Below the pieces are notes generated by a model that worked only from the letters and a program-made list of their open reading frames with translations, was not told the origin of the DNA and did no database searches. Positions 12,540 through 45,240 of a stretch of 64,000 nt of DNA are shown one piece after another (the first letter of the stretch is position 1; each line of letters opens with the position of its first letter). The DNA is from Amphiscolops sp. MND2022 (lineage: Eukaryota). The stretch is taken from the NCBI GenBank assembly GCA_964187785.1, contig OZ076409.1, positions 61,878,001 to 61,942,000 on the forward strand, written 5' to 3'. The position numbers and the translations under genes are program-made.

Positions 12540-15500
12540 AGTTAGAGACCACATCAAACATGAAGAAGTCTGCATAAATACACTCCCTACCTCAATACAG
12601 AACGCAATGCGAATAATACAACTCAAGGTCCCGAACCGTTATTCATAGGAATCCTCTATATACCTGATAGTAGAAGTCTCTATCGGATACCAGTGAACGA
12701 ACTTAGAGAAATGTTTGCTTTCCTTCGGGAAAACTGTAAGCCAAATCTCATGCTTGTCGGTGACTTCAACATGCCAGATACAACCTGGGCTACCTACCAA
12801 TCTGCAGACAATTACGAGCAACAAGCAATTGCTTTCAAAGAAGACTGTGGGTTGATCCAGATGGTGAACTTCAAAACCACAAAAAGTTCCTGTTTGGACC
12901 TTGTACTCGTAACTGAGGAATCATTCATAGGTGAAATCGCGGAGAAGGCAGGCATGGAAGGCTTCTCAAATCATATCCCGTTAAATCTTGAATTAACTAT
13001 AAATGCACAAGTTACGAAGATGAGTAAAAGTCAATATTTTAGTTACTGCCGTTGCGACTATGATTCTCTGCTAGCTGAAATGGCTGTTCAAGCTTTCCGG
13101 CCATTTTGTTATAGTAATGTTGATGTAATTGTAAATCTATGGTACCATTGAATTTATTCAATGGTAGATAAATATACTCCAAAAAGGACAAAAAAAACAG
13201 AAATACCCCCCATGGGTATCAAATGAAACATCACACGTGCTGAATAAACTGTAAACTGCTAGACGAAGTCAACGAAAGAAATCTTCTGAGATTTCGAGCA
13301 AAGTAATCCTTCTGGAGGCTAAATGTATGGAACTACAAAAAAGACATAAAGGACTACGAAACAAACCTTTTTGCTGAGAAAAGTGGCGAAAGAATTTTCA
13401 AGTACCTGAAGAGCTTGAAAAAAAACTTTCTCTCGAGGATAGTAAATAACGAAACAAAAGAAATTGCAACTAGCGATTACAACAAAGCAGAACTTTTCAA
13501 AAAGTATTTTGTCTCTTGTAACCGATCCTAAGCAAGTGGAATTTGGGAACATAACCTATATCGATGAACTTGAAATCAGCAAAGATCTACATAGGTTCAA
13601 CGTCAGTAAAAGTCGTGGAGCCGATGGACTTCCCCCAGCCTTTCTACGAGAGACCAGAATAGACATAACGCGGTCGCTGAAACTCTTGTACTCGAACATA
13701 AAAAGACTATCTAAGTTTCCGACTAAATGGAAAGAAGGAATTGTTTCGCCAATCCACAAAGAAAATGAAAGAGTAAATGTTAAAAACTATTGTCCTGTAA
13801 CACTCCTGAGCATAGTTTCGAAAATATTTGAAAAAATCTTGTTTCGGTCAATTGCACCTGCGTTCTTGAACTTCGTTAGCGAATTCCAGTACGGTTTTTT
13901 GCCCAGAAAATCTGTTGTCCTTCAGCTAATTACAAGTCTCTCAAGAATTTATGGAAATTTGAACACTGCCGGCCACGTGAACTTGCTAGCTCTCTTCGAC
14001 TTCTCCAAAGCATTTGATAAGATCAAGCAGGATATTGTACTCAAGAAGTTGACAACTCGGTGTTTCTGAGAAATTTTTTCACTTGCTCCGAGACTACCTA
14101 AACGGCAGAACTCAAAGGGTTAAGATCAACAACAGTCTTTCAGACAAGATGTCCATCACGTCGGGCGTGCCTCAAGGTTCAATTCTGGGACCACTCTTTT
14201 TCCTGATTTACATAAACGACCTACCAAGTGTTGTGTTTTCTCCAGTGGCACTACTGTTTGCGGATGACTTGAAATTGATATATAGTGGTAGTCCAGAGCA
14301 ATTGGAACGCCTGCAAAGTGACATTGATAATTTACTCTCCTGGAGTACCCAAAATTGTCTCCTGTTTTATGCCAAGAAGTGCTCCGTAATTGAATTCGTG
14401 CCTGGAAAAAACAAGAGAAAAACAAACGGTGCCTTAGTACTGGGAAATGAAATCATGAAGCAAACAAGCCGAGAACGGCCAAAGTCGGCGCCATATCCAA
14501 GGCTCAAAATTTAAATTAAAGGGGGCCCTTCGGGCTTTGTGAAACTCCAGCTGGTTGCAAAAAATTTTAAAAAAATTGAAGGGGGGACCCTTTGGAGACA
14601 TGAAAAAATTTCCCAAAAAAATTTTTAAATGAAATTTTTGAACAGTGTCACAGTGCCGAAAAAGGTAAAAGGGGGACCCTTTGCGATTTTTTGACATCCA
14701 TTGTGTTGCAAAATATCGAAACAAATGAAGGGGGGACCCTCTGGTGCATTCCAAAAAACTTCAAAAAAGTCGCATTGTGCCGAAAAAAGGTGGGGCTAAG
14801 GTGGGATCTTTAGTGTTTTCGAGGTTGTGGACGTCTGTTTTGTTTTTTCTTTTCGTTTTGGACGCGCTTCTGAGGTTGAAGTTGTTGAGGTTTGAAGTTG
14901 TTGAGGTTTGAGTTTGTTGAACAAATGAACAAAAAAGTGGACCTTTCGTGTCTAAAAAAACTACCCACTGTAATAGTCGGGCAAATTTTCTACTAAAATG
15001 CGCCGCCGACTAAAAACGTCCTCCAAAGACGTAGGACTCATCATCAATGAATCACTAAGCTGGAAAGAACACGTGGAGTATCGTATGTCAAAAGCCTTAA
15101 AATGTTTATTTCTTCTGAAGAGAGACGCCCATCAATCACTCACCATAACGGCAAAAGTACACCTTTACAGAGCTATCATAAATCCGATACTGTTGCTTGG
15201 TTCTGAATGCTGACAACTGAAAAAAGCTGAGTACAAATTAATCGGAAATTTCAACGCCAAGGCCCTCAAATGGATCTGTGGCAACATGAATTACATTGAC
15301 TCGCTAATTTCGACGAACTCATTGCCACCACTTTATTACAAGATTCTCAAAGACTTTCTGTTGTACAGTAACATCATTAACGACTACTATACAGTTGACC
15401 TTACCGAGCACTATGGAATCAAGCGTGAAGGAAGACGAGAATCATATTACCGACTACCTTTTACGAAGCACAACGTCAAAACATCTGGTACCGAACTGGA

Positions 15501-19800: not shown

Positions 19801-22800
19801 TCAACTTCAATAACGTCCCTATGGCACAGTGGCCAACACTTATGCCGTGCAATCGGGAGGCTGCAGGTTCGAATCTCTCGGGGGTTTTGGGGTTTTTCTA
19901 AAAGGCGCTCATCATGAAGTTGACTATAGTGGAAAAAAAACTTACTTAGCTGGACTGCAATGCACAATGACTTCGTCATGTGCAAAAATGAGGAACAAAC
20001 AAAAAAATGAGTACCGAGATTGTATGACAATTCGTGATCTTCATATCCAAAATAGGTGGGCGGTTTTCGTTTGCGTCGTGACCTAGCCTCCACGAAACTC
20101 AACTCCTTCTCACTATTGCCAGATTCACTCCTTCTTTTGCCCACTTCTCGCTCTTTCGATCCCTTCGTGCTGGCTTCCGAAGCATCGTCGCTTTCAGAAG
20201 CCAGTGAAGCATCGTCTCCTGCTTGTTCAAAGTTGGGATCTTTCCTTTCGTCTCCTGGTTCATCTACATCACTGCTACTGCTAATATTGACAACGCCACT
20301 CGAATCGGGCTTTTGTTTCTCAGCACCCGGCGAAGACTGCATTTCAGGCTTGGGAATGACTCTCGCTAATTGCACTTTGCATTCAACTGGAAAATTATCA
20401 TCGCTGGAATCGTCCGACAAATCGACAATACTTCCTCCCGGTTTGACAGGGCATTTTGTAGGACTACCGCTGAAGTCAAGTAACCAGTTGTCTTTGGTTT
20501 TGCCGATTTTATCGAAAAGCGATTCATCTTCATTTTCCTTCGAGTCTTGGGATCTGCAAAAAATGCTTTTGAACAGAAAACTTTTTCCTAATGACATTTC
20601 AACACATAAATTTTGTATAATCATGAGTCCTCGAAAACTTGGTACGAGGAATCTCCAACACTTCATTCATCGTTCACCTGACATTGTAGAACTCAGATTT
20701 TTCATTTTCTTGAATTTGAGATTCCTATGGCTTTATGATGTCGAAGGCAAAAACGAACAGCTCAAAAAAGACCAACACTGAAAGAACAAAGCTTTTGAAA
20801 ACTCAAGAACATTTGGTGATTCAAAAATTACAACGCTTTTTTCAGTTCCCGGTGTTTTTTCGTAGCATTATCTCTAGCTTGTGTTACTGAGTTGAGGTAA
20901 ACTATGTGAACCATCATTAATTTTTTATCATTGAAGGCCGCGGCATTATTGAGTGAATTGAGGGCAAAATATGAATGTCAAGAAAAAATTGATTTCAGAC
21001 TTTATGACGACTTTGAATAAAAATTGCGGCGTGTAATCGAATACGGCTTTTAATTTTTTTTCTCAAACCTTAAAAAAATACAAGGGGTCGTGCGCATCGG
21101 GGCCACGTTTTAGGATGGATGATTTTTAAATGTGTAGCCCGAAATTAAATGGTGGGCAGTCTAGAAATGAAGGGTGGCACCGATACGCTCCAAGCCCGAA
21201 GCCTCCCCAGGTGTCAACGACGACCCCCAATAATTTACAATTTTTAGTAAAAAATTATCAATTGAATTAAGCAAGTGGAGGCTCCTAAATTTATCAAAAT
21301 AAAAATAGCATCAAATATAAATGTCTAGCTTGAAAGCACGTCATGTGAATAGCACTAAGGCATTTTATATTAGATCAGCAGTCTACCTTCCTCAACGACA
21401 GTTCCTATCGAGGCTTCAACTATCCCACGACGACGCAGCGAACGCGAGCCACGGATACACAGAATGGAACTTCGCAAAAGCGCGAAGCTGATTTTTGTCC
21501 GGATATAAGTGATGTCCGAGTAGGAATCCTCCTTTTTGTCGCTCAGTTTTCCTGCTATCCGCTTGATTACCTTTGACGCGGATGGGCCTGCTCCTCCAGT
21601 GCAGGAGAAGACGAGCGGATTGAAGGTGGCATGTTCGACTTCTCGGATTCGTTGTTCGTATTTTAGCTTTTTTATTTTTTAGCTGAAAACTGAGGACAGA
21701 GTATGAATGTTCCAAAAGTTTGGATTGACAGCTAGATACAAATTCTCCTCAAAATGAATTGGAAGGAGTCTTACGCAATGGGGTTCTGACATTTTTGGCT
21801 CTGTTGAATAGTCTCTCCACAATGTTGAAAGTCGGCAGTAGTAAAGAGTGAGCTGAACAGAGGGGTATAAAGTGAGGAGTACATGTATTAAGATTGGTTA
21901 TAGGACTAGAAATCCCTTATTTGGAAATTTACAGAAAAGGAGGAGTTCAACGGCCGCCGCCGCCGCCAACGGAATGCCGCCGCCGCCGCCGCCGCCGGTG
22001 ACAGCTGTTGCCGCCGCGGGGACGGATTAAAGTACTTAGGAATGAAAACAATTGTACTAACGAATTGAAACGATTCAAATTAGAGCAATTTCATTGGATC
22101 ACTTCCCTTTTGGCAGTGCAACGAAAAATTCTCATTTAATTTTGCCCGAACACAATTACTAGCTTGTTCTGTACCTTGCAAGTAATGAAACGAAAAATAG
22201 TTTCCGAAAAATCGAACGATTATCCTCGAACCAGCAAAGGAAAAATGGAACAATCTGAACTCTGTCCAACTCCACATCAATCTCCCAATTTCTCTACCAA
22301 CTTGTTCACAAGTTATGTGGATATTGGACCAGAGGAGACTTTAGACTTCGGCACGCTTGCGGTGGCACCTCAGACTTCCAAGTCTTTATCTTTTGGGAAA
22401 TCAGTTCTGGATAAGTACCGACAAACTGGTTTTCTTGCAGACGCACAATCTTCGACTAAATGCTGGGACTTTTCTTGTATACCCGAAAGAACTTTAAGAA
22501 TTTCTATTCCTGCCACTGAAATAAAACATCCAACCAGTAATTGGATACATATTAAAATCTATAAAGAATTTATGGGACAAATGAAGTTTCATCAGCTTCT
22601 GATTCTCTCCACCTGGGAAATGAGGAGAGTGTTATCATCACTCGATGAGGTTTTGCAGGAAGCTCGAAATTTGTTTGAGGAAAACTCGAATGAAATCATT
22701 GTTACGTCCTATACTGCTGAGAATCCTTATTTGAATTTCCCCACGCCATTAGAAGATTCCAAAAGTTGTGCTAAATTTTGGGAACTTTGTGAAACAGCGA

Positions 22801-25800
22801 GACGAAAGATTTGTGCTTCAATGACTGTCTATGACAAAGAAAACTTCTACCGCTCCTATATTCAATTGAAGTTATACACACGAGTCAACACAGAGGACAA
22901 TTTCGTCAGGAAAGGATGTATCAATATGAAAGTGGGAGAAGTATCTAAGTGTCTGAATTCTAAACTGGAGCTGATGGAAACATTCGTCAGGGAAACACTA
23001 GCATTGAATAAGAAACTGACTACGTCTGTCTCTCTTCCTTCTCTGTTTATGTGAATTTTTGTTGAATGATTCATTTTATATATTTATTGTTTCCATTGTA
23101 ATTCATTGTTTGCTCTTCCATTTCAAGTTTTTTCTCCCAGATCTTCAGTTGATCACAACCAGTTAAAATTGAGATCCTATTCTGAATTTTTCTTACCAAT
23201 ACAAGTGAAAGATATTCACATCTGAACGTTGCTATAAAAAATGGATGTAAAGCTTATCAACGAACTGGAAAAGGAAATATCGAATGATTACAGTTTCAGT
23301 AGGAACACCAGAAGAAAGAATTATTTTTTAGCAGCATGCAAATCACTTGATCCGGAAATAAATCTGTTGCAAATAGATGAACAGTCCCCTTTCGGAGGAA
23401 TTATAGGTATTGACGATTCACCTCTTGATCGTGTTCTATCTTTCTCAAAAGTTTTTCGACTTCATGCAGTTTTACATGATGCCTCGGGCTTCATGAAAAG
23501 GGAATTGAATGTAGGACCAGGGTATTGTTATGTATTCAGATTTGATAACAAGTTTCCCAACTTCTGCTTCCTAGGACATTTAACGGGAATCTCCTATTGT
23601 CTATACTTGAAGTTTTTCTTACCATCACTTTTCGAAACAATTCGAGTTTAAAAGTCATTACTTTGACAACTAATGTTATCATACAGTCGTTCCTGTACAG
23701 CAGATATGCAAAATTCCAATAACCCAGTGGTACATACAAAAGAGATAATTTTCGACGATAATAACGAGGAGCGTCAACCTTGGAACGTGTGCGGACGTAA
23801 GTGTTCGAGATCAGCAAGCCTATTCATTATTCAAAGCAGTGTTGTTCTTATATTAATTGTTACTTCTGTCGTCAGTATTCTACTCTCCTCAAGTTGTGAA
23901 GAAACAACCGTTTGGGTAGCTATTTTATCAAGTGTAGTCGGGTACATACTTCCGAATCCACGTCCTTAGATATGAATAAGTTAATTTCCACGGAAGATAG
24001 AGTTTTCATGTCCTTGGTTGGACCATCTGCTTCAGGGAAAAGTCACCTAATATTTCAGATGCTAAAAGCAGGAACTTTCGTTCCCAAATTTGATAAGATT
24101 TTCTATTTTTATCAATTCTTCCAGAACTTGTATATACGGATGCAGCGAGACATAGAGAACATTGAATTCATCGGTAGCTTAGATTTCGACTTCATTGATA
24201 ACTTACCTAATGATGGAACAAAGTACTTATTAATTTTCGATGATTCTTGTGACGAAATTTCACGTTCCAAGAAGTTCGAGAAACTCGCCACTGCTGGAAG
24301 ACATAGAAATTTGAACTGTATTTATGTTAAACACAACCTTTTTCACAAAGCTTCTACTGGTCGCGACACTGAGTTACAAAACACTCACATCATTTTATTC
24401 AAGTCACCAAGAGATGTACAGCAGATTAATGTTCTTGGGAAGCAGTTAGGTCTGGGATCTGACCTAAAACAGTGGTATTCAGATGCAACCTCCAAACCTT
24501 ATGGTCATATTTTGATAGATTTAACACCAAAGACACCCGATCCACTAAGATTTTGTTCAGATATCACTTCATTTCCAACCGTTTTCTATTTACCAAACAG
24601 TAGGTCGCGAGTAACAGAAATAAATGATCAAAAAACTGGATTACTTTACTCTAAAGCTTCTCCTCGACTCCAGTAAAGATTTACAGAAAAGTTTCCTGAA
24701 ACTTTGTTCGAAAGATTTTGTCAGATTTCTCTGCGAATGTTGTAGAAACCTAGTCCATGGAAACTTGAAAGTTGCGAGCAAGATCAAATTGATTCCCTTG
24801 AAGCAAATCATTAAACAATTGATATCTAAAAAGACTAGTTTGAAACAACGTCGATTCCTTTTGGCTTGTGATAAAGGAATTATACTATTCAGATTCATTG
24901 CACAAGCTGTTTTAGATAAATTTCAACATCTTTTCGACAATGGAAAATAATAAATTTGTTTTGATTCCTCTTCATTTATGGAAAGCAGGGAAAACCAATT
25001 TTCAGACAGACCTTTCATCACCTATAGATGTACAAACAGAATCTACCAACGAAAGAATGAGTTTCTTTAATTCCTTACCACAATCGCTCAAGTCTAATAA
25101 AAAGCACTCCCCTTCCAATGATACTTCCAATGATACTAGAATTGTTCAACCTTCTAATAAGCAGTCCAAACTTAAAGAGTATCTCTTGGATGTTTTCAAG
25201 AAAGATTCCAAGGCCAAGAAAATATTAGAAGAACTGTTTTCCAACCCGTCGATCAAATTTTCTAATGGAAACACAATTGTTGTGAATAATACAGACACAG
25301 AAGTCAATGCTCGGGACTTCGTTTATGATTTGAGACATAAGTCAGCTAATTTCAACCCGAGATATTCTATCATTCTGCAACAATTGAAGCTACCATCAAC
25401 ATACCTTGCCAACAGTACCGCTCTAACTGGTGATGATGACAGTTGGATCACTTTCTCTTTCTGAAAGACTCAAACTTACAAAATTATACCGGAACGGACC
25501 GGCAGCGTTCGGTTCAATATCAAATTTAGTTAGACTTAGTGGTCTCTCACGCACGAAAGTCAAACAATTTCTTGATAGTAAAGCGTCATACACCAAATAC
25601 AAAAATCGAATCCGGAAATTTCCTAGACTACATGTTTTTGCCAGGTTCATTGATGACATATGGTGTTTAGATCTGGCACAAGTTGATAAATTATCCCAAT
25701 GGAATTCTCACACAAAATTCCTAATGGTTTGTGTTGACGTGTTTTCACGCTTTATAAGGGTTGAACCTATGAAGAACAAATCTAGTGAATCAACCAAAAT

Positions 25801-28800
25801 GGCTTTTATCAAATTGTGTTCTAATTCGAACAACTTTGTAATTCCGAAACGATTATGGATTGACAGAGGGAAAGAGTTTTTCGGGGACTTTCGATCCTTT
25901 TGTGAAGATGCTGGAATAAATGTGTATCACACTTTTAGCGAAACGAAAGCTAGTTTTGCTGAACGGGCTATAAGGTCGTTGAAAACAATAATTTACAAGC
26001 ATCTGGAGGAAAGTGGGAACTATAATTATTTCCGTAATCTACCGAACCTTGTTGACTGTTTGAATTCGAGGATCAACAGATCAACAGGACTCGCTCCAAA
26101 CAAGGTTACCAATTCTGACTATCTGAAAGTTTTGTATAGACAAGTGAACTTCAGTGACAAGACACCACCATTCCGGAAAGGGGATTTTGTTAGAATAGCT
26201 AAAGTTACTACTTCTTTTTCCAAAGGTTACAAACCTCAGTTCACAGATGAACTTTTTCGAATAATCAATCTTTCAACCAGACAACCTGTTCCTACGTACG
26301 AGCTGGAAGATTTGGAAGGCGAGAAAATTTTAGGTAAATTTTATCATCACGAACTTTCTAAACATATCTCGAGATAAATTTGACTACAAAAGGAGTTCAC
26401 CATTTGTCGATGGAATCTTTTACAATAGAGTTGTAAGCTCTTCCACTCTTCAGCTTCCGGAAATATATTTCGAACCAATTCTTCAGCATCTTTTTCTAAC
26501 CTATTACCAGAACAGCTACATTTGAGTGGCGAATGGGAAGTAGCTGTGACTGAAATAAGCTATCCATCGAAAATTTGTAACATTACTGAGGGAAGATTTG
26601 AAACGTCTATTGTCAGGAAAGGAGTGAAACATCTGGAATACTTCAATCTACAACCTGGATGCTATGACTCCATAGATTCTGTGGTTATTGCATTGATAAG
26701 TAAGGTCTCACAATCTTCACGATATGTGAACTATATAGACAAAGCTTTGCTTAACAATTTAATCACTTGTGAAATTGATCCTGTATCACAACAGCTGAAG
26801 TTAGCAACGATCAAAGATTTCCATTTGGGATTGATAAGCGATGACCTACAACACATTTTTGGTTTCATACCATCAAAATTCGATGTTTTAATTGATCAGG
26901 TTCCTCGAGTTTCCCCCTTAGCTTTCGACCTACAACGAATCCATTCCATTTTACTTTACACTGATTTTATAAATAGTAATATAGTTGGTGACTCCAAAGT
27001 ACCTAATCTTAAAACGTTTGCGATTGAAAAGACGGAAGAGTCAGGAATACGATCGAAAACTTTCATGCAGCTGGACTTCCGAAGAGTACTCAAACATTCA
27101 ATTCATTCTATTTCAGTTGAGTTGAGATCACCTACGGGTGAACTTATTCCGTTTCTATCTTGTGGATACACACGCCTGAATCTGTTATTCAAAAAAGTGA
27201 AAGACGGGAATAGAATCTAGTTTATTTTCATTTTCTCTTTAATTATCTTACAGGATGGATGGTTTTGACAAAATGAGTTATTTTCGTGGTGTACCGAGAC
27301 AACGTGGGAGAGGATTAGGAGCCTTTGCAGGAACAATTGCTAGGACAACTTTTCCTATTTTACGAAAGTATGTTTTACCTGTAGCGAAGAAGTTAGGAAG
27401 AGATGTCATAGAATCGACGATTCCTGAACTCGATCAAGTTATCAAGGGAAAAGCTTCTATCAAAAAAGCAGTGAAGCGTACTGCTAAAGCCACTGCAAAA
27501 AAACAGTTTGGAGGAGGAAGAGTGAAGAGAAAGTCGAAACAGAGAAGAAAAAGAGGATTGAAGAAAAAAATCATTAAACAGAAAGCTCAGAAACAACGCA
27601 GTCGGGACGATTTTTTTAAAAACGTTACCTAGAATAATGTCCATTCCCAAGACAATGACTCACTCTTCTTTGGATCTGTTCGAACGAGTACCAATTTTGG
27701 AACCAATCGAGTGGTCCAACCTTCAGAAAATATATCCCACAAATTCTCTCAATGAATCTTCACTCGAATTTAATTTTGCAACGGACCGAAACGTCATGAT
27801 TGACTTACAAGAAACTTTCCTATATTTGAAAATAAAAATTGGTAAAGGAACTGCAGACTTAGACGGAACTGACGATGTTATGTTTGTCAACAATACAATG
27901 CATTCGCTTTTCTCCAATTGTGAAGTTTTCTTCAACAACGAACAAGTTTACACATCTAACGGTCTTTACCCACACAAAGCTTTTGTTTCTAATGAGTTCT
28001 CTGGTACCAAGGGAACCAAGGAATCTATATCGTTTTGTCAAGGTTATGACTATGAAAAAGATCCGTCTGCTTTTGGAGAAGAACCTTTTGTCACTAGAAA
28101 AGGGAAAAAGAGTGATACTGTTGCTTTCTACGGGAAGTTATGTGTTGATATTTTCACTTGTGACAAGTTTTTACTCCCTAATGTTAATGTACGGTTACGA
28201 TTGGTTCGTTCGCGACCAATTTTCTATTTAATTTCACAGCAGAATAAAAATTTCATCGGTAAAATCTTGGAGGCGACACTTTTCGTTCGACAAGTTGCTG
28301 TCGAAGATCGAATTTATAAAGATCTCCACAACACTCTCCAGCTACGAGCAGCGCGGTATAATTTTTCTGAAATTTTAGCGAAATCTTTCATAATACCCAG
28401 CGGACAGAACCAGTATATTCATGAAAACATTTTTAATAATGCTCCAATTAGACGTTTAGCAATTGCAATGAATGTCAATACTGCTTTCACTGGAACTTTG
28501 AAGACTAACCCGTTTCATTATCAAAAGTTTGGTCTCAGTTCCTTACGATTGGTTCGAGGAAGCCAGGTTGTTGTCGATTTGGATACTACTCAAAATGTTC
28601 AGTCTTACATCACGTCAATGAGAGCTCTCAGATTCGATGAAGATGGTCCTGGTATTCCTCTTGAGGATTACGATAATCATTTTGTACAAGTATTCGACCT
28701 CACGTCTACCCAAGAAGCTAACGTTCAAATCTATTACCCTGATGTTGTCGCCGCTAGTCTTAGATTAGAATTGAAATTCACAACTCCTATCACTGCAGCA

Positions 28801-31800
28801 ACCGAGGTAGTTATCTTCGGGGAGAGAATTTCTACAATATTTATTGACAAGAACGGTTCAGTTGTTAAAAATGGATAACGATCATTTATCACGAATCATT
28901 TCCAGATTTGGTATTTTGAAGTACAAGTATCTTGGTTCCTTCCCAGCAGATATGATTCCTGAAATTATTCCTCATAATACTTTTTTCATCTGTAACACCG
29001 ACACCAGCAAGAGACCTGGAGTGCATTGGGTGATGGTTGCGAATTGTCGGGGAAAAATTTTTTTCGGAGACTCTCTTGGTAATTTACCAACCTACTACAA
29101 AACTATTCAACTCAATCCTAAGAAATCGATTAAAGTTTTGAATCGTTTAACTCTACAGAAGCGAGATCTCTGCGGACTTTATTGTATCTATTTTGCCTAT
29201 TGTTTGTTTTCTAACTTTTTAATGTATGATGTGAATGATATTTTTATTCTCAAATTCTTTGCAGAAGTTTTATAATGTGTGACGGTTTTGTAAACTTTCT
29301 TCATAAACTGCTATTTAAATTGTCTGTGAACCTTAATTTAACTATTTTCTAAAATTTTTTTTGCTATTCACCAACAGTTGAATTTCTAACGTACAGCACA
29401 TCAATCAATGAAATTAGTTACTCAATAGAACAGTAATAAATACAAATGAAAACTATAAAACAGTTCAAAAGCTATCCTCGCTAATTTCGGAATACCGACG
29501 TCTCCGGCTTGATCTGGGAGCTTGCGGCATCGGGATTTCCACTCTGTTTTGTGGCGTAACTGACCAGTCTTGTCCATGGAGGTCCGTAAATGGCTCGTTG
29601 TTGTGATGGTGGGGTGTTGAAAATAGTAGAGGAATTGTCAGAAAAGAGAATCGGGCTCTCGCTTCTCTCTTCTGCTTCCTCCACTCCCCAGAAGGAACGA
29701 ATCCACTCTCTTTCTTCCAGTTCGTGCTCGACATTCTCCCTGACTTTCTTTCTGTTCAAATGGAACACTGCGAAGTCTTCCCTAATTTTCAGTGGTAGAG
29801 TCCTCTCGTCTCGTACCTTTGTAACATTTAACGAATGTTCCGCAGCATCCCCCGACGTTTTGAACTCCCCTGCTACTTCGGCTCTGACTCCGTTGGGGAT
29901 TTCGTTGCTAGTGTTTAGGTTCCCCAGCCAACGATGTTGCATCCGAAAAAGAGCTTCCGGCAACACACAGCTTTCGACAATCTCTTCTGAGTTATCGTCA
30001 GGTTTAATTGTTAGGATTCGCACTTCCTGCGTGTCAACGTGGAAGTAGATAAATAGATCCCGAGTTTCAAATTCTGTGTTGAGCATTCGATAAACAGGCA
30101 TAATGGTGAAAACTCGGGAGTTAAATATTCGCGATTGAATTTCGAAGCTGATTTACAGACCAAAATTTAGATGATTTGTGAAGATTTGTGAAGAAGTTTG
30201 AGATTGAATTTCGGAGCAGTTGGAGATTATGAATAAATTACCTCCACCAATCACAGTTCGTTGTTGTGATTGTGCGCCATCTAGTTCTTGCAAACCAACA
30301 AACTCATGAAAGGTTCCAAATTTGAAAGTTTGAATGAATTAGGAATAAATTACCTCCACCAATCACAGTTTGTTGTTGTGATTGTACGCCATCTAGTTCA
30401 TGCGAAGTAACAATTCCACGGAAGGCGCCATATTTGAAAGATTGAATAAATTAGGAATAAATTACCTCCACCAATCACAGTTCGTTGTTGTGATTGTACG
30501 CCATCTAGTTCATGCGAAGCAACAATATCATGGAAGGCGCCATATTTGAAAGTTTGAATAAATTAGGAATAAATTACCTCCACCAATCACAGTTCGTTGT
30601 TGTGATTGTACGCCATCTAGTTCATGCAAACCAACAATTTCATGGAAGGTGCCAAATTTGAAAGTTTGAATAAATTAGGAATAAATTACCTCCACCAATC
30701 ACAGTTCGTTGTTGTGATTGTACGCCATCTAGTTCATGCAAAGCAACAAATTCATGGAAGGTACCAAATTTGAAAGTTTGAATAAATTAGGAATAAATTA
30801 CCTCCACCAATCACAGTTCGTTGTTGTGATTGTACACCATCTAGTTCATGCAAAGCAACGAATTCATGAAAGGTACCCAAATTCAAACTTATAAAAATTG
30901 AGGAAATACTTTGGCATGGAATAAATTGAGAATAGAATGGCTTGCGGTAGTCTGGATCTGTTTCCTGCTTTCTTCGAAAAATATATTAAAAATTCGTTTC
31001 TTCTCTTAGTCTCTGATTATCCTATTGACCTCACCGAATTCGAACAATACTCAGTATCAATTCACAATTCAAATTTCTGTAATTCTCCCAATTGTCAGTA
31101 CCATATTCTAGTTTACAGCACACATCTCAGTTCTTCAGATTTATCACTCCAGTGCAATTTCTCTTATCAGAGTGTAGACTGTCTTTTCACGGTCTTCAAG
31201 TTTTATTTCATGAAGATACTAGAATTGAAAGGATTCATTTTCCAAAAACTTTTGTCAGCAATCGACTTCCATAAATATCTCCCGTCTCCAGTCCTAACAA
31301 GTTTCAGTGTGTCCAAAAAAAGACTTCTTCGGAAGAAATTCAAAACTAAGTCTAGAAAATCAACATTGATTTCTCCCAGAGCTCCCGAAACTTGAACTAC
31401 TGCAATTCTTCTCTCCAAAATAAGTTTGATATTGTTATCTAGCAAACGAGAAGAATTACTTGAAACTATTGATCGGATATCCAAATCTTTATAGTTTCTC
31501 AAAATGTCTCATAGAGAACTAAAACAATGTCCCATTTGTTCCAAGTTTGTTGGAAGCAATAACTTTGCACGTCATAAAAAGATTCATCAGTTTCAATGTA
31601 GCAAATGCTCCTCATCGTTTGCCAAAGAGGAGAAACTTTCTCGACACTTTCTTGCTAAACACTCAACGTCTAGTTTCGTGTGCTCTATCTGTAATTTACC
31701 GTTTCTTACGTTCAACCGTTTGAGTTATCATAAACGTCAAGTACATGGAAGAGTGGGAAAAATACCAATCGATCAAATTGATTTATCTGAATTTGGTGAG

Positions 31801-34800
31801 GAGGATCCAAAATTATTGGAAGAACTTCGATCTGTGCAACATTTCCTGGTTGATTCAAAATTGAAGTTGAAGAAGAAAACGATTTACAATTTCCGATTAA
31901 CAGAGTTCAATCCTATCTTGATTAATGAGAAACTGCGAGAAGTATTCCTGAATCTGAACTGTGCAGTTAAGTTGAATCTATCTTTTGGATTTGTTCTCCA
32001 TGACAGAATTGAAAGTGGTGAATACAGATACTACTATGCAGCTGACAATAACCCTATTTTTCAAACACCTATTACTCTTGAGAATGAAAGTGATTTATTG
32101 ACATTACAGAGTCGAATAGAACAGGAAAATTTTCTCCATGATTGTGTCGTGCATCGTCCGAATACCAAATGGAAGTTTGCTCTCTTAACAAACTTGACAG
32201 TTTTTCTTTATCATTTAGAGAAGATTCCCCTTGGTTGTTCGGTAGTTAACCTTCCTCAAGCAATAATCAAAAACCCTAACATTCGAACGTTTCTGGTAGA
32301 TGGAAACAAAAAACCTTATGATGACAACCTGTGTTTCTTCAGAGCGGTTGCGTTCGAAGTATTTGGAAAAAGAGATCTCGTCACCTCTACGAATTCTTTA
32401 GTCTCGACTTTCTTATCTCGAATTGGTAAAGAAATTGTTCATTTCAAGGGGATACAGACAAATGAAATTCAAGTTGTTGAGAACATTATTGGAATGAATA
32501 TTTCTCTGTTCTCAATTTCTTTTGATGAGCAGGGTAATCTCGTCGGTACTTTATCTTATCGTTCCCTGATGTCGTATGAGAAGTCTTTTTCTTTACTTCA
32601 ATACGATAATCATGTTTGCTGGGTTAAAAACATTGATCAATTTTTGAAGAAGTACCGATGTGATCATTGCGATAAATTTTTCCCGAAAGTCTCTAACTAC
32701 CAAAGACATCTCACTGTTTGTACTGATCGAGTTTCTCATCGTTATCCTAAAGGACCTTATCAATTGAAGGAGACTATTTTCGAAAAATTGACAAACTTGG
32801 AAATTCCAGTTCAAGAGTTTCTGTACGAAAATTTGGTCGTATTCGACTTCGAATCTATTACTGTACCTGATTCTACACTCCCTAACTCTGAGATGACTCG
32901 TTATATTGGAAAACACGTTCCTATTAGTGTATCAATTTTCTCCAACTTGTTATCAGAACCTATATTCATATGCAATTCAGATCCTCGTCTCCTGGTAAGC
33001 AAATTCATCGAGGAATTGGTAATTCTTTCACGATCTAGTTCCCAACAACTCCGTCAATTATTTCAGAAAAACTTCGAAGCTTTAGATGAGAAACTACAAA
33101 TTAACGAGTGTAGTTCTGACGACAGTCCGGGAGAAGACAAGAACAGTAAAAAAGAGAAGAATCTTCTCCTTCAAGTCAAGACCGATTTAATTGTATATTG
33201 TGATAATCTTCCTGTATTCGGATTCAACAGTTCACGTTACGACCTCAATCTTATCAAAGAACCCCTTCTCGATATTCTTCTGAATGATTACCAGTGCACT
33301 CCGTCGGTCATCAAGGTTTGCAACAAGTACATTGGTATGAACTTTTTGGGATTACAATTCATGGATATTCTCAATTTTTTGGGAGGCGCAACTTCATTAG
33401 ATAAGTTCCTCAAAGCATACGGCGCTTCCGAGGAGAAAGGATTCTTTCCTTATGAATGGTTAGATACTGTCGAAAAACTCGAAGTGAATCAGCTACCAGA
33501 TATTAGTTCTTTCTATAGTGAGCTTAAGAAAGTGAATGTTCTTGAAGTCGACCAGAAACAGTACAATGAACTTCTTTCTCGTGGAATATGTTCCAAAGAT
33601 GCTCTCAAGAAACTTGGACTGTCATCGGTTCCCAAAGGAAAAGAAGAAAACTATGAAGAATTGCAGAAACTTTGGGAACGGGAAAAAATGCAGTGCTTCA
33701 AAGATTATCTGAAATGGTACAATAACAAGGACGTTGTTCCCACACTCGAAGCGTTACAGAAAATGTTGAACTTCTACCATTCCCAAAACATTGATATGTT
33801 GAAACTGGGTTTGACGCTACCTAATTTATCGAACAGAATTCTCCATTCAACGACTACTGCTAAGTTCTTTCCTTTCAATGAGACTGACAAAATCTACGAT
33901 GATTATATTCGGTCATGGTTAACAGGTGGACCATCCATCATCTTCACAAGATATGCTAAAGTTGGAGAAACACGAATCAGGAACAGTAATAACGTGTGTC
34001 GGTCAATTGTGGGAATTGATGCCAGTCAATTATATCCTTTTTCTATGACAAAAGATATGCCGACTGGTGTTTACACTAAATGGGAAATGAAAACTGAAAC
34101 TGGAAAGTTTCATCCTCGGCGAAACCAGAAAAACTTTCTGGAGTATGTTGTTCTGGAATTCTTACAAATTAAGTATCCAAACTGTAAACTTCGCACACAA
34201 TTCAACCACAAATCCCAGAAACGTATAGGAAAGTACCTTGTAGATGGATACTGTTCTCATTGTCGGACTGTTTTCGAAGTTCTGGGATGTTACTGGCACT
34301 TTTGCAATTGTCAAGACAAAAACCGGCTCTCTTTATCTGCCCTAGAAAATGGAGCAAAACGAAGAAAGTTTGATGAAGTTCGTCGTATTTATCTCACCGA
34401 AGCTGGTTATAATATTAAAGAGGTTTGGGAGTGTGAATGGTGGAAGCAAGTTCGTGAGAATGTTGATGGTGCTGGAGACTTCATGCGACAATGCTATCCT
34501 TATCAGAATCCATTAACCGAATCTGAGATGCTGGAGGATATCAAAACTGGGAGACGCTTTGGTGTAATCGACTGTTCAATTGAGGTTCCCTGTGACTTAC
34601 GAGCTAAGTTCGATGAGTTTCCTCCAATCTTCAAGAATTTTTACGTTGGATTGCAAGACATTGGTGCACATAGAGATTTTGCTGAGAAAAATCATATCCT
34701 GAAAAAACCTCGGAGGATGTTGATTTCAAGTTTTCATTTATCAAAAGGACCACTAATAACTCCACTTTTACAGTTTTATCTAGAAAAAGGACTCGTCGTA

Positions 34801-37800
34801 TCGAATGTTACGTGGTTCATAGAATACACTCCTCGAAAGTGTTTCAAATCTTTTGTTGACACTGTTGTTGAAGCCAGGCGAGAAGGAGACAAGAACAAAA
34901 ATTCTTCGGTGGTGGCAGAAACAATGAAACTTATCGCCAACTCATCGTATGGATATCAAATAATGGATCGTTCGCGACACACTACCACAAAATATGCCAA
35001 CGAAGAAAAGGTGAACAAACTCATTAATGAAAGCAAATTTAAAAGTCTCAATGTACTGTCCGCAAACATTTTTGAGGTTGAACTCATCAAGCCTGTAGTA
35101 GAACATAAAGAACCTATTATTGTTGGTTTCTTCATCCTTCAGTATGCTAAATTGACGATGTTACAATTGTATTATAATTTTTTCCAGTTATTTTGCGATC
35201 CTCAGAAGTTCGAACTTATTGAAATGGATACTGATAGTCTCTACATGGCTTTGGCTGGAGAAACTTTGGAAGATATAATCAAACCCGAAATGAAGTTGAT
35301 ATGGGATTTAAGTAGACAAGACGATTGTCGGGATGATTTTGCTGCGAACGGTCACTCAAACTTTTCCCCCAGGAACTGTTGTAACAAACATTGGGTTTTC
35401 GATCAACGCACACCGGGACTATTTAAAGAAGAGTTCAGATGTACTGAAATGGTAGCCCTCTGCTCGAAAACTTATTGTTGCTTCGATAGTTCCAGTAATA
35501 CAACTAAACTTAGTTGCAAAGGATTGAACAAGCATGCCCTAGTAAATGATGAACCTTTGCAGAAGTATCGTAAGGTGTTACAGAAAGAGTCCGTTGTTAC
35601 CACAAACAGAGGTTTCCGAGTTGTTAAAAACAGTGTTGCCACGTACGAATTGAAGAAGAATGGACTTTCATACTTTTATCCGAAAAGACAAGTGTTGTCC
35701 GACGGAATTCATACGAAAGCATTGGATATTTAATAATTTTGATTAGTTCGTATTTCCTTCATGAATCTTTTGCTGTTTGATTTAAATTTATGTTCCAATA
35801 AAGTTCTTGGTGTGAATTGTTTTTGTTCAGTGAAGATGAATTTTCAACAATGTTTCATAAAATTGATCTTTGTTCACTAAATAAAAACTCATTTTTCACA
35901 GTTTCAGTCCAATATTTCATTAATTATGAACATTTTCGTATACATTTTGACCGTTTTGCCATGAAAAACAACTTTTTTTCGTGTTTTTTGACAATTTGTC
36001 GATAGAAAACGACCGTTTTTTAAAATGAAATTAGATGTTTTCACCAAATAAAAATTCATTTTTCGCTTTTTAGATCAATTTTTCGTTAACTTCACCCACT
36101 TTTTCTTGAATTTTGCCCGTTTTTCTATTAAAAACAACATTTTTTCATGTTTTTCGATAATTTTTCAGTAGAAAACAGCCGTTTTCACCAAATAAAACCA
36201 TTTCCCCCGATTCTTGACTGTTTTTCATGAATTTTGAACGTTTTTTCGTGTTCTCCGATAATTTTTCAACAGAAAACAAACATTTTTTGAATGAAATTTG
36301 ATGTTTTCACCAAATAAAAGTTGATTTTTCTCTATTTTAGACCATTTTTTTGCTATTTTTAACCACTTTTCCATGAATTTTGTGCAGTTTTCCATTAAAA
36401 ACAACCTTTTTTCGTGTTTTTCGATAATTTTTAAATAGAAAACGACCATTTTTTGATTGAGATTTGATGATTTCACCATATAAAAACTCATTTTTCTCCA
36501 TTTTAAACCAATTTTTTGTTAATTTTATCCACTTTTTCATGTATTTTGACCGTTTTTTCATTAAAAAAAAACTTTTTTTCTTGTTCTCCAATAATTTTTC
36601 AATAGAAAACGACCGTTTTTCGAATAAAAATTAATATTTTCACTAAATAAAAGTTCATTTTTCTCCATTTTAGACCAATTTTTGTTGATTTCAACCTCTT
36701 TTTCATGAATTTTGACCGTTTTTTTATAGAAAACAAGCTTTTTTTTTCGAGTTTTTCGATAATTTTTCAATGGAAAACGACCATTTTTTGAATGACATTT
36801 GATGTTTTCACCAAATAAAAGGTCATTTTTCTCTATTTTAGACCAATTTTTTGATAATTTTAACCACTTTTCCATGAATTTTGAGCAATTTTCCATAAAA
36901 AACAACCTTTTTTTCGTGTTTTTCGATAATTTTTCAATAGAAAACGACCATTTTTTGAATGAGATTTGATGTTTTCACCAAATAAAAACTCATTTTTCTC
37001 TATTTTAGACCAATTTTTTGTTAATTTTAACCCCTTTTTCATGAATTTTGACCGTTTTTTCATAAAAAACAACCTTTTTTTCGAGTTTTTCGATATCTTT
37101 TCAATAGAAAATGACCATTTTTGAATGAAATTTGATGTTTTCACCAAATAAAAGTTGATTTTTCTCTATTTTAGACCATTTTTTGCTAATTTTAACCACT
37201 TTTCCATGAATTTTGAGCAATTTTTCATTAAAAACAACCTTTTTTTCGTGTTTTTCGATAATTTTTCAATAGAAAACGACCATTTTTTGAATGAGATTTG
37301 ATGATTTCACCAAATAAAAACTCATTTTTCTCCATTTTAAACCAATTTTTTGTTAATTTTATCCACTTTTTTCATGTATTTTGACCGTTTTTTCATAAAA
37401 AAACAACTTTTTTCTTGTTCTCCGATACTTTTTCAATAGAAAACGACCGTTTTTCGAATAAAAATTAATATTTTCACCAAATAAAAGTTCATTTTTCTCC
37501 ATTTTAGACCAATTTTTTGATAATTTTAACCACTTTTCCATGAATTTTGAGCAATTTTCCATAAAAAACAACCTTTTTTTCGTGTTTTTCGATAATTTTT
37601 CAATAGAAAACGACCATTTTTTGAATGAGATTTGATGTTTTCACCAAATAAAAACTCATTTTTCTCTATTTTAGACCAATTTTTTGTTAATTTTAACCCC
37701 TTTTTCATGAATTTTGACCGTTTTTTCATAAAAAACAACCTTTTTTTCGAGTTTTTCGATATCTTTTCAATAGAAAATGACCATTTTTGAATGAAATTTG

Positions 37801-40800
37801 ATGTTTTCACCAAATAAAAGTTGATTTTTCTCTATTTTAGACCATTTTTTGATAATTTTAACCACTTTTCTATGAATTTTGAGCAATTTTTCATTAAAAA
37901 CAACCTTTTTTTTTCGTGTTTTTCGATAATTTTTCAATAGAAAACGACCATTTTTTGAATGAGATTTGATGATTTCACCAAATAAAAACTCATTTTTCTC
38001 CATTTTAAACCAATTTTTTGTTAATTTTATCCACTTTTTTCATGTATTTTGACCGTTTTTTCATAAAAAAACAACTTTTTTTCTTGTTCTCCGATACTTT
38101 TTCAATAGAAAACGACCGTTTTTCGAATAAAAATTAATATTTTCACCAAATAAAAGTTCATTTTTCTCCATTTTAGACCAATTTTTGTTGATTTCAACCT
38201 TTTTTTCATGAATTTTGACCGTTTTTTCATAGAAAACAAGCTTTTTTTCGAGTTTTTCGATAATTTTTCAATGGAAAACGACCATTTTTTGAATGACATT
38301 TGATGTTTTCACCAAATAAAAGGTCATTTTTCTCTATTTTAGACCAATTTTTTGATAATTTTAACCACTTTTCTATGAATTTTGAGCAAATTTCCATAAA
38401 AAACAACCTTTTTTTCGTGTTTTTCGATAATTTTTCAATAGAAAACGACCATTTTTTGAATGAGATTTGCTGTTTTCACCAAATAAAAACTTATTTTTCT
38501 CTATTTTAGACCAATTTTTTCATTAAAAAAACAACTTTTTTTCGTGTTTTTTGATGATTTTTCCAATAAAAATATCCATTTTTCATAAAAATTGACATAT
38601 TCAAACAAATATAAACTTTTTTTTTCAAATTTTAAACTAAATTTTCAAACTCGTTTTCACGAAAAAAGAGTAAAACCCGTTGTGTTTTATCGAATTTGAG
38701 TACATTGAGTTGATGTCTCTGATGTTGGGAGCGCGGGGGGGCCCCACCCCCTTATATACATGGGGGTGTATACCCCGCGGTCGGCGTGATATGACTGGCC
38801 TATAGCTGTAACGATTAAGACTCATTCCGAGACGTCACGATAACACACCCTTAGCGCTATAGGTTAACATATACTCAATAAAACTTACTTAAGCTTCAAA
38901 ATGGAATTGAACGAGATAAAAGCTATGTGATAGAATTAATCTCTGATTCTTGAAAAATCTAAGTTTTCGATTCTTACTTACATGTTCTTGTTCACTTAAA
39001 AGTATTATGCTCAATACTTGTTCCCACCGGATGTTACTGATAATAGTTTTTCTAAATCGATGAATCTTCACTTACATAAATACTGGTTCGATTATATTAT
39101 ACTAAATTCCTGGCGGAACGAATAACTTTCAATACTAAACTAATTCTTGTTGAGTGAGTTTCCCGTACTTAGCTACTAGTTGCAAAATTCAGCCAGCACT
39201 TGTACTGGATTAAGTGAGTCATGAAACCTTGGGAAGCGTCCTTTACTGGACTACTGAAAGTAACATATCAGCGAACACTTGTGACGGATTGAGTCAACCA
39301 AAACTAATTGAAGAGACACTGCTGACTTTCATTCAACCTACAGTATACAGTAGTAAACTTACAGTAGTAATCCGCGAAAGAGAATATTCATGAAGGGAAT
39401 GAAAAGTGAATGAACGTTTGAGTCGCAGTGAACATGACAGGTTAGACTTACTGATTCTCTAAACTGTCTAGTAAACCGTGAAAGAGATCATTCAATAAAA
39501 TAATTATCGAAAAATATAAATTAATAATAGTTTCATTTAAAAGCTTCCCATGACTTTGAAATGAGTATAAAACTTGTTTATAGCCTCAATTCGCATCAGG
39601 GTAGCCTTTAAAAAGGCTGGGTTTTTGATGATTGAAAAATTATTGGAGGGGATCATAAAGCTGTCCTTCCCTACAATGTGGGCATGAAACTAACATTGTT
39701 CCACACACTTTGGAACAGCAAACTTTCCTACAAGTGGTGCATTGCAACCACTCACACCAACATGCTGAATTGAGAGTCATACATATCCAACAGTGATTGT
39801 GCTTGTTCTGTAAACAGTCATGATGACCAGACTCTCTATGTTGTTCATCTTTCGTAGACAATCTTTCTTTGAATACTGCTGGCATTTTTGGAACAATGAG
39901 GGAACAAATTTCAGACGTTCCCTTATATTCTTCTCAAACACTCCAGATGTTGGATTAGGTCTTTTCATTATCAGGTGTGAAAACTTGCCTTTGAAATAAT
40001 CGCGTACTTAGAGCAACCTACTGTGAAAGTTACTTTGGACTACCTAATTTAATACAATCGATTCTTAGTTAATCATGTTAATACCAATTTTATTCAGCTT
40101 GATACCAAATTAGTACGTTTTGATAATGAGTGATTAGATTTTACGTTGATACAAGTGATAACGCTTGTACTCAATTAATTGTAATTTGGTAAACTTGTAT
40201 ATACTTCAACTAATGTTTACAATATCTTTAATCCGTCCCCGTGGCGGCAACAGCTGTCACCGGCGGCGGCGGCGTTCCGTTGGCGGCGGCCGTTGAACTC
40301 CTCCTTTTCTGTAAATTTCCAAATAAGGGATTTCTAGTCCTATAACCAATCTTAATACATGTACTCCTCACTTTATACCCCTCTGTTCAGCTCACTCTTT
40401 ACTACTGTCGGCGTTTAGACGTATAATAAAGATAGAGACGTTATTCCTGTTTAAAAAGGCTTTCTGAAAATGAAAGTATCAAAATGTGAGGCATATGCGG
40501 TGTATGCACGCTCACCCTCACCGTCGCAAATACCTCTCACATCATACCTCTACAATTTGAATAGTAAGATTTCATGATGTTTTGTATCAGAAGCGAAGAT
40601 TTTCATAGATCTAATAACATGGAGGATCCAAAGGGGGATTACGGCTTTTAAATGGGTGCTGTCATATTACGAATAAATATGGTGCTGTCATCGTCACCTG
40701 TTGATGCAATTTTCAATTACAACATTTTGAAGAATTAAACTTGGAGATTTGAACGAAACATATTCAAACTTCCCTATAACTTACAGTCGACTTCGGCTAA

Positions 40801-43203: not shown

Positions 43204-43403
43204 NNNNNNNNNNNNNNNNNNNNNNNNNNNNNNNNNNNNNNNNNNNNNNNNNNNNNNNNNNNNNNNNNNNNNNNNNNNNNNNNNNNNNNNNNNNNNNNNN
43301 NNNNNNNNNNNNNNNNNNNNNNNNNNNNNNNNNNNNNNNNNNNNNNNNNNNNNNNNNNNNNNNNNNNNNNNNNNNNNNNNNNNNNNNNNNNNNNNNNNNN
43401 NNN
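43204..43403. other. Assembly gap (200 N)
   Basis: Run of N. Confidence 1.
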
Positions 43404-44024: not shown

Positions 44025-45240
44025 CTAAAACCTTCTACCATCCGATTTATCATAGCCATATTTAAAGTAGTTTCGGAAAATATTTTTCAGTTTAGGCTTA
44101 AATGATGTCGTGTCGAAGAAGACAATCTCGAATTTTGATGATACGAACTTAGCCAGATTAACAACTCTGTTTATGAAAAAGCTGTCGGTGAACTTCAGTC
44201 TTGTTTTCATCTTAGAGAAGTTTTCGTGATGAAAATCGGGTGGCATAATCGCGGGGAGCTCCTCTGTAGAAAAGTCCTGAACATATCGGAGAATCGTTGA
44301 CAATACAATGATGTAGGAAAAAGAGGTCGTTCAACTGAAATAGCAAAGAAAAGGGAAGCAAATTGAGGGCTAATAGCCGATCCTTATAGTCATCTATAGG
44401 TCCAAACGAACGAATAAATTTATTTTGAAAGACTTCTAATTTCGATAAATCAGTCTTGTTGGGAAACCATAGGACTGATCCATAGGTGATTATTGGTAAG
44501 ATATAAAGTTTGTAAACTTGTGATTTTACATTAGCTGGTAAGGTAGTCGGTAAAGACCGCTTTAGCATCATGAATCGCGAGAAACTTTTTTTGATACGAA
44601 CATCGATGTGTGCTGACCATTTCAAATCAGACGTAAAATTGGTACCCAAATCTTTAATAGGGACCGTAGAAAACTCAATATCTTTAGAATCAAAGACACG
44701 TCTACAGAATTTTATAGCGATGAAGTGTAAACCATTGCAGTTCAGTTTTCGTGTTATTGAATTCCATTTTATTTGCTTTCGCCCAGTTATAAATCCTTAT
44801 GAGATCATTCTGGAGTTCAATGAGATCAGCATTTGAAATTTTCGAATCGTCTGCAAAGAGTAGCATTATTAAATTGACACAAACACAAGGCAAATCATTG
44901 ATGAATATTAAAAAATAAGAAAGGTCCAATAACAGAGCCTTGGGGGGAATTGAATGGAAGGGCAGTTGAGAGACAGTCGTCAATTTTAACTCGTTGTTCA
45001 CGATCTTCGAGATAACTTTTCAAGAGTTTGAGTATATTACCACCAATCCCAAAACTGGCAACCTGTTTCAATAAAATCTCATGATCAACACGATCAAACG
45101 CTTTGCTGAAATCAAGATAAACTGTGAAAACTTCATCTCCTCTGTCGAGGTTGTTGTATATGTAATCTAAGTGAATTGACAATTGCGATTGTATCGATTT
45201 GCGTTTCATGAACCCATGCTGTAAATGGGATACCTTTTTC
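44025..45240 (-). mobile_element. Degenerate CR1-like LINE, RT to 3' end
   Basis: QHGFMKRKS, VYLDFSKAFDRVDH, PQGSVIGP, LLFADDSKI, DLKWSAHID, FFINRVV. Confidence 0.85.

Follow-up and report, generated by a model that had tools for sequence, protein, structure and literature searches.

The question raised by the 64,000-nucleotide stretch of contig OZ076409.1 from Amphiscolops sp. MND2022 that was analyzed here (the window) is whether the Polinton that it carries at positions 21837 to 40406 (the window element) is a near-intact member of an unusual lineage or an ordinary element, and what has become of its relatives elsewhere in the genome. Our answer, to which we assign a probability of roughly 0.7, is that the window holds a young, slightly broken ordinary Polinton and that other parts of the genome hold mirror-image derivatives carrying only the polymerase gene, which likely arose by strand fold-back, likely copy themselves, and would be inserted by the integrase of complete Polintons. 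This answer builds on the anatomy of the element, on mirror layouts flanked by target-site duplications (TSDs) of 6 bp, on a fold-back junction, on near-identical mirror copies at different loci, and on substitutions present on both arms, all of which were observed.

A search of the animal's own genome (1.07 Gb) with the window element's terminal inverted repeats (TIRs) returned 39 matches, which make up 17 end-paired elements, 1 extra right end, and 4 unpaired ends. The genomic copy count proposed as a check in an earlier, sequence-only description of this DNA (the original prediction) therefore stands at 17 end-paired copies, with a TSD matching at 6 of 6 positions in 16 of them. The window element is one of 14 copies with the normal layout, most of which are about 0.3% apart. 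The other three (C3b, C3c, and C4b) are mirrors, each consisting of two right halves placed head-to-head; open reading frame 1 (ORF1) to ORF12 are absent from them, the integrase and capsid genes included, the TSD matches at 6 of 6 positions, and the flanks are not mirrored.

Within this family, the likely fold-back origin of mirrors has left a visible junction. A single 9-bp inverted repeat (window positions 32477 to 32515), one of four such repeats within the window element, is the turning point of both C3c and C4b. There is a scaffold gap at the center of both, yet the contigs on each side read through the junction. In C3c, one contig crosses the junction with distinct arm-specific variants on each side, and those past the junction agree with the following contig rather than with the other arm; the contig is therefore not a fold-back read. 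C4b lies on a different chromosome, and both of its arms have four substitutions and one indel that are otherwise confined to one C3c arm, along with two other substitutions that are shared and an identical large deletion. One end of C4b has the private TIR variant of that C3c arm, and its other outer arm is that of the young subfamily. C3b is gap-free and 18,563 bp long, with a one-base microhomology junction at a boundary between 112-bp repeat units (window position 30785). The possibility that the C3b arms came from two genomes was considered and dropped, as their divergence is no more than that between any two young copies. Among the normal copies, C8 and C3d each have a new TIR substitution at both ends, as expected if ends were homogenized before insertion. 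Left or right TIR marks that would tell in-place repair from a pre-integration origin were sought, and none was fixed. Separately, four independent rearrangement breakpoints (C3b, C13, C10a, and C3c/C4b) fall within about 500 bp of the 5' part of the protein-primed DNA polymerase B gene, pPolB (window positions 32001 to 32515; element positions 10165 to 10679), which is possibly a pause or nick region.

Mirrors are not confined to this family. When the genome was searched with pPolB and the best 150 of 1,192 candidates were scored, further outward-facing pPolB pairs were found. One-off mirrors occur in two other Polinton families, family 2 (L062) and family 3 (M3), and a separate M4/M5 clade comprises at least 17 mirror elements, typically 13 to 17 kb long, in which pPolB is the sole recognized gene, with one copy per arm. 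M4 is a young family of about 16.3 kb with 8.0-kb arms that are 99.5 to 99.8% identical, a 0.6-kb spacer, and a pPolB frame of 1445 amino acids (aa) per arm; the open frames of the young copies range from 1445 to 1453 aa and keep the catalytic motifs. All nine M4 TIR matches of at least 97% lie in five mirror or gap-split elements that are 99.5 to 99.7% alike, of which three are complete, one is split by scaffolding (with the same TSD 119 kb apart), and one ends in a gap. Altogether, 26 stretches were fetched for M4/M5-type ends, and these comprised 17 two-arm mirrors and the split element, the others being single arms that run into gaps, fragments, or uninformative stretches such as L102, which missed its TIR match. 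Tblastn queries for integrase, major capsid protein (MCP), minor capsid protein, ATPase, and protease had no match in 24 of the 26 stretches, and the same queries readily found these genes in families 2 and 3. Capsid-module genes were present in the other two, as fragments at C5:768 and as an unassigned decayed module in a stretch that missed its TIR match. Nine M4/M5 loci were also chosen blind to content, on matches to both TIRs, and gave eight two-arm mirrors and one partial element, none with integrase or capsid genes.

Across 19 mirror-type loci, the TSD matches at 6 of 6 positions in 15, at 5 of 6 in 3, and at 3 of 6 in 1. The pPolBs of M4, M5, and C4:355a form one clade (SH 100), with M4 and M5 72% identical and the catalytic motifs that were checked retained; this clade is sister to a group containing family 3 and stands apart from the window element's family. 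The mirror elements therefore have Polinton ends, a 6-bp TSD, and a Polinton pPolB. As they have no integrase or capsid module, they should not be filed as Polintons.

Some loci near this subject show further peculiarities. In the mirror elements L062 (G000:C1:31413927-31421071) and L111, three or four pPolB segments alternate, forming inverted triplications that suggest repeated fold-back. In the last ~900 bp of L114 (G000:C4:35859300-35869299), the right end of a mirror is continued by (AGT)n over at least 900 bp, resembling a slipped expansion of the terminal motif. A protein, P0164, is 99.65% identical to the M4 pPolB, and its longest public contig, at 17,976 bp, is near one element length; this contig could be a free molecule or could have been cut off where the assembly broke at the palindrome.

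In this clade, the two arms of a mirror evolve together. Comparison of the M5 elements C5 and C3 gave 55 substitutions that one element has on its two arms alike and 48, 37, 8, and 6 on single arms. The arm-spacer-arm centers of C2:9163, C4:355b, and C3:8051 are collinear end to end at 79 to 83%, with arm ends within about 40 bases, and each element's own arms are 92 to 98% alike at these centers; the mirror layout is therefore older than about 20% divergence. The centers of M4 and M5 do not align, so there may have been two origins or one old one. A selection test on a partial pPolB frame was not significant, and in a repeat on longer frames two of five within-lineage pairs were significant. 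In two deep M5 pairs, pPolB pN/pS was 0.24 and 0.20 for both-arm substitutions versus 1.23 and 0.84 for between-arm substitutions (Fisher p about 1e-8), which shows purifying selection on both-arm substitutions in one lineage.

We propose that these forms would arise during protein-primed strand-displacement replication, which would release single strands. A strand that stopped early would switch template, or turn back on itself where it carries a short inverted repeat, and copy its own end, giving a molecule with two identical ends. Such genomes would keep both origins and, if pPolB were whole, could replicate, with one arm re-templating the other. The common AGTAGT(A) terminus would be recognized in trans by a helper's integrase, and the arms, once inserted, would decay neutrally, each alone. 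We know of no direct demonstration of Polinton replication. A broader formulation, for which we judge the odds to be slightly better than even, is that the mirrors constitute an undescribed class of element: palindromic, capsid-less, and integrase-less Polinton satellites with two polymerase genes and protein-primed self-replication, whose arms would be kept identical via hairpin intermediates and which would have persisted through ~30% protein divergence, would hijack the integrases, and perhaps the capsids, of complete Polintons, and would have been born by fold-back in the window element's family.

Several points weigh against our reading. Extrachromosomal replication of the mirrors and their integration in trans are steps that we infer from sequence. 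C3c and C4b are without the first third of pPolB and therefore cannot self-replicate; C4b is also a mosaic with one distal arm of the young subfamily, which ectopic repair explains equally well, and the arm divergence of C3b does not separate the models. Selection was not significant in three of the five within-lineage pairs (C5/C3, 0.60, p 0.6; M4/C9:3309, 0.64, p 0.14; M4/M4, one site), so that the element may have no need of its own polymerase for recent spread. At C5:768, an M4-like end adjoins a truncated pPolB and the capsid-gene fragments, so the mirror clade may have had capsid-bearing parents. The placement of the clade is by FastTree only, and in 6 of 19 mirror-type loci the center is interrupted by an assembly gap.

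The alternative that survives best, although we consider it unlikely, is an origin in place on the chromosome, in which a break in a normal insertion would be mended through fold-back, or with the opposite TIR or an ectopic copy as the template, while the original TSD was kept. The five M4 mirrors, which are nearly identical, have one spacer in common, and lack a full-length sibling among the matches, fit this poorly, as do arm ends at homologous positions over ~20% divergence and purifying selection on both-arm changes accompanied by neutral between-arm changes. However, the mosaic C4b would fit it, as would C3b, C3c, M3, and L062, each a one-off mirror, the TSDs are preserved as it demands, and the TIRs bear no fixed left or right marks that could exclude it; in the available portion of PMC3573991, such a model is described for TIR extension in Galileo (TIR1-F1-F1-TIR2). 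Somewhat more doubtful is a mirror clade that is fully non-autonomous, using a helper's polymerase and integrase, with its own pPolBs as passengers under a constraint left over from an earlier time. Frameshifts are frequent in inserted copies, the three closest pairs show no significant selection, and C3c and C4b have no whole pPolB, all of which speaks for passengers, but a both-arm pN/pS of 0.20 to 0.24 between elements with collinear mirror centers and the open 1445- to 1453-aa frames of young M4 copies, with their catalytic motifs, do not. Assembly artifacts from palindromic reads or scaffolding are very improbable, since despite the 200-N gap at the center of several mirrors and the M4 element split across a scaffold, 13 of 19 mirror-type loci have no noted gap, the centers of C3b, C12:5764, and C3:8051 are gap-free, the TSDs match, the flanks are unmirrored (identity 0.22 to 0.31 in the 16 measured), the arms differ by 0.2 to 14%, junction-crossing contigs carry arm-specific variants, and unique spacers are conserved between loci.

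The window element itself is ordinary. It is 18,570 bp long, begins with AGTAGT, ends with ACTACT, and is flanked by a perfect 6-bp TSD, GTCGGC on both sides. Its TIRs are 97 to 98% complementary apart from the GCC repeat, the length of which is their main difference. The termini, TIRs, and 6-bp TSD reported in the original prediction were thus borne out, as were its two internal repeat arrays (112 bp, 5.9 units; 167 bp, 13.7 units) and its uninterrupted ORFs for pPolB, integrase, ATPase, MCP, and protease (1409, 314, 234, 413, and 134 aa). The features are as follows.

21831 to 21836, plus strand: left TSD, GTCGGC, by direct read
21837 to 22032, plus strand: left TIR, 196 bp, opening with AGTAGT, inner GCC repeats of variable length
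22185 to 23054, plus strand: ORF1, 289 aa, an open frame kept in both other families examined; PC4-like label without confirmation
23241 to 23651, plus strand: ORF2, 136 aa, a conserved family with invariant GG-x-G...HD; possibly PLA2-like by motif, without a profile match
23673 to 23969, plus strand: ORF3, small and hydrophobic, from its sequence a likely membrane protein
23972 to 24676, plus strand: A32/FtsK-type packaging ATPase, 234 aa, Walker A and B present (Pfam Pox_A32, 2e-7)
24624 to 24950, plus strand: ORF5, 108 aa, kept in the other two families
24940 to 25464, plus strand: ORF6, 174 aa, conserved
25433 to 26377, plus strand: rve (DDE) integrase, 314 aa (Pfam rve PF00665, 3e-10)
26410 to 27220, plus strand: probable minor capsid (penton) gene, so called because it immediately precedes MCP in the gene order and is conserved in three families
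27255 to 27632, plus strand: ORF9, 125 aa, basic, between the capsid genes, likely a core protein
27637 to 28878, plus strand: MCP, 413 aa, double-jelly-roll capsid (predicted structure and fold search)
28871 to 29275, plus strand: adenain/Ulp1-like protease, 134 aa (weak Pfam match, Peptidase_C5/C48, E 0.13; His and Cys motifs present)
29481 to 30101, minus strand: ORF12, an open frame
30226 to 30883, plus strand: 112-bp tandem array, 5.9 units
30937 to 31395, plus strand: ORF13, upstream of pPolB in all three families
31504 to 35733, plus strand: pPolB, 1409 aa (Pfam DNA_pol_B_2, PF03175, 8e-17; motifs by pattern)
32477 to 32515, no strand: natural 9-bp inverted repeat with a loop of 21 nt, at which the mirror copies C3c and C4b turn back
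35788 to 38645, plus strand: 167-bp AT-rich tandem array, 13.7 units
39640 to 39885, minus strand: Cys-rich ORF, 81 aa, with a homolog in family 2; weak RING-like lead
40226 to 40406, minus strand: right TIR, 181 bp, closing with ACTACT
40407 to 40412, plus strand: right TSD, GTCGGC, by direct read

The element thus combines TIRs with AGT ends, a 6-bp TSD, pPolB, rve integrase, a double-jelly-roll MCP, an ATPase, and a protease (the last by a weak Pfam match and motifs), as expected of a Polinton. Sequence searches of MCP against PDB were blank, and the fold search alone gave its identity: a model built from a 56-sequence alignment (pLDDT 92) matches the double-jelly-roll capsids of iridovirus, mavirus, and PBCV-1 with E values of 1e-15 to 1e-16. 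The gene at 26410 to 27220 had no matches in Pfam, PHROG, or PDB; it is probably the minor capsid gene, a call made from position and conservation and not from fold. Calling it by gene order, one gene ahead of MCP, follows the available part of PMC4028283. The TP-vOTU-Exo-Pol layout of pPolB, as given in the accessible text of PMC11161782, was judged present from PF03175 plus the vOTU, Exo, and Pol motifs. The VSR-like insert has weak DUF559 and MTES_1575 matches and can be aligned with Haliotis and Asterias proteins. The patterns by which the C2H2 fingers, vOTU Cys/His, Exo I/II, Pol A/B/C, and VSR-like insert were located are ones that we take to be characteristic of these motifs. Among the 167-bp array matches listed (150 of 215 in the genome), all lie inside copies of the window element's family.

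The element was also described as a recent integration, and this is supported: 10 of 12 normal-layout siblings are 0.26 to 0.41% from the window copy over the left 8.1 kb (the other two, 1.2% and 6.0%), and each normal-layout sibling has its own TSD. It falls short of the near-intact state that had been claimed. The minor capsid candidate, overlooked in that description, has a frameshift near its 5' end that is absent from 11 of 12 siblings, in which the frame is open; ORF13 is cut to 152 aa by an early stop, whereas 9 of 12 siblings have 185 aa; and ORF3 (at its 5' end) and ORF12 each have one end unlike that in all 12 siblings. Two other copies of the family are rearranged. At G000:C13:26920655-26949431 (L021-L023), the right 8.2 kb of a copy are repeated in tandem behind it together with 369 bp of flank, giving two occurrences of the right end and TSD, and at G000:C3:8282841-8353103, a copy is split within the ATPase/ORF5 region by ~52 kb, of which the 34 kb examined contained no Polinton genes.

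The surroundings of the window element include serial decayed reverse-transcriptase/endonuclease frames of the long interspersed nuclear element type (window positions 44200 to 60700, minus strand, and 12500 to 14500), and there is a 200-N gap at 43204 to 43403. The TSD GTCGGC is common to the window element and the C8 copy (L004-L005, G000:C8:2237689), with the shared context AAAGTCGGC ... GTCGGCG. Related insertion sites were considered and rejected, as the flanks are unrelated past 9 to 10 bases, and we take the match as chance or a weak target preference.

That the accessory set is unusual, as had been predicted, is not supported. A search of the genome with MCP, in which the best 101 of 1,642 candidates were scored, revealed at least two further Polinton families, and four copies from these two (families 2 and 3) were examined. 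ORFs 1, 2, 3, 5, 6, 9, and 13 recur across the four copies in different arrangements, the Cys-rich ORF recurs in one of the families, and some copies have their own 145- or 178-bp internal arrays; ORF12 had no counterpart in these four copies. C2H2 Pfam domains occur on many of the 120 pPolB relatives listed, and PLA2-like accessory genes are already described for adintoviruses in the available portion of PMC8502044. As for the ORFs themselves, the PC4-like label is unsupported for ORF1, which was blank in Pfam, PHROGs, Atlas, and PDB profile searches and gave an AlphaFold model with a pLDDT of 38. For ORF2, the PLA2-like label has behind it only the invariant GG-x-G...HD pattern, possibly a PLA2-like motif, with no PDB profile match; as regards the hallmarks of the alpha and beta adintovirus classes (PLA2X or GasderminX/cupiennin), this motif is what the element shows. 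The RING-like label survives as a weak lead (Atlas score 0.90, recognition below threshold). At G000:C11:23642082-23676244, about 13 same-strand family 2 TIR copies form a 34-kb tandem cluster. An 11.15-kb family 2 element with a perfect TSD (L044-L045, G000:C13:6259480-6270632) has kept its integrase and capsid genes and lost nearly all of pPolB, and is in this respect the complement of the mirror elements.

The suggestion of an undescribed lineage holds in a weak sense only. Among the 120 relatives listed, the nearest named pPolBs are from echinoderms and molluscs at 32 to 35% identity, and in a FastTree phylogeny (47 rows, including 39 of the 120 listed homologs) the window element falls in a clade of unnamed sequences, apart from named ones; as a ground for interest, the accessory genes are weak. 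Its relatives are present in a marine metagenome, and together with the echinoderm and mollusc relatives this makes a marine invertebrate the probable host. The DNA contig set searched yielded fragments only, mostly 85 to 95% alike; separate searches gave no loci among viral contigs and two short loci among metagenome contigs. The window element is an ordinary Polinton, a divergent member of a known group. As far as the available portions of PMC4028283, PMC8097293, and PMC8502044 go, animal Polintons/Mavericks share its size, (AGT)2 ends, TIRs, 6-bp TSD, pPolB, rve integrase, ATPase, protease, double-jelly-roll MCP, low copy number, and mostly decayed copies, and it differs only by its divergence from named relatives and by having all core genes on one strand. 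In its VSR-like insert, the window pPolB resembles the VSR-containing pPolB2 group of mollusc and marine-nematode Polintons in the accessible text of bioRxiv 2023.08.22.554363, with its nearest named relatives among molluscs and echinoderms, although its clade stands apart from named sequences in the tree.

The mirror derivatives, without integrase or capsid, differ from animal Polintons/Mavericks and recall several other systems. As in copy-back or snap-back defective viral genomes (PMC13506859, in part), mirrors have one end duplicated in inverted orientation, probably by polymerase fold-back, have lost the genes of the other end, and would need a helper; the genomes in the part of that source available are mainly those of RNA viruses and non-coding, whereas the mirrors are DNA, are TSD-flanked integrants, persist as families, and have a polymerase per arm. 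In foldback-type transposons with extended TIRs, such as the Galileo 2RT copies in the available sections of PMC3573991, internal sequence of non-autonomous copies is likewise duplicated into longer inverted arms, but those arms are non-coding and at most ~1.3 kb long, whereas mirror arms reach 8 kb, contain a whole gene, and evolve in concert, partly under selection. The same sections state that expansion of Polinton inverted repeats "has been reported." Capsid-less pPolB elements, namely, linear plasmids and transpovirons, also have a protein-primed polymerase and no virion genes, and none is described in the accessible parts of PMC11161782, PMC4405056, and bioRxiv 2026.10.13.758929 as palindromic over its whole genome, with two polymerase genes and the ability to integrate though it has no integrase of its own. 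C. elegans loci with pPolB and a TIR and no integrase are reported in PMC11414722, the available part of which does not describe mirrors. A literature search, with the founding Polinton papers and Repbase outside it, found no report of palindromic two-polymerase Polintons, and a prior description is possible. What would be new here is the polymerase-bearing mirror form and its visible origin.

Published screens demanded integrase and polymerase, or five core genes, together, according to the available portions of PMC8097293 and of the nematode screen in bioRxiv 2023.08.22.554363. Mirrors have no integrase and would therefore be missed by such screens, and for this reason they may be widespread but unlooked-for. 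Polinton particles have not been observed, as stated in the part of PMC8097293 available. Fold-back genomes with TSDs, TIR mutations at both ends, and concerted arms are the marks expected of protein-primed strand displacement. If our reading is true, they would be the first trace in a genome of the intermediates through which an animal Polinton replicates by strand displacement, and the mirror clade would link Polintons, defective viral genomes, foldback transposons, and capsid-less pPolB plasmids. The replication model becomes testable on host DNA alone, as snap-back, protein-capped linear molecules of predictable size.

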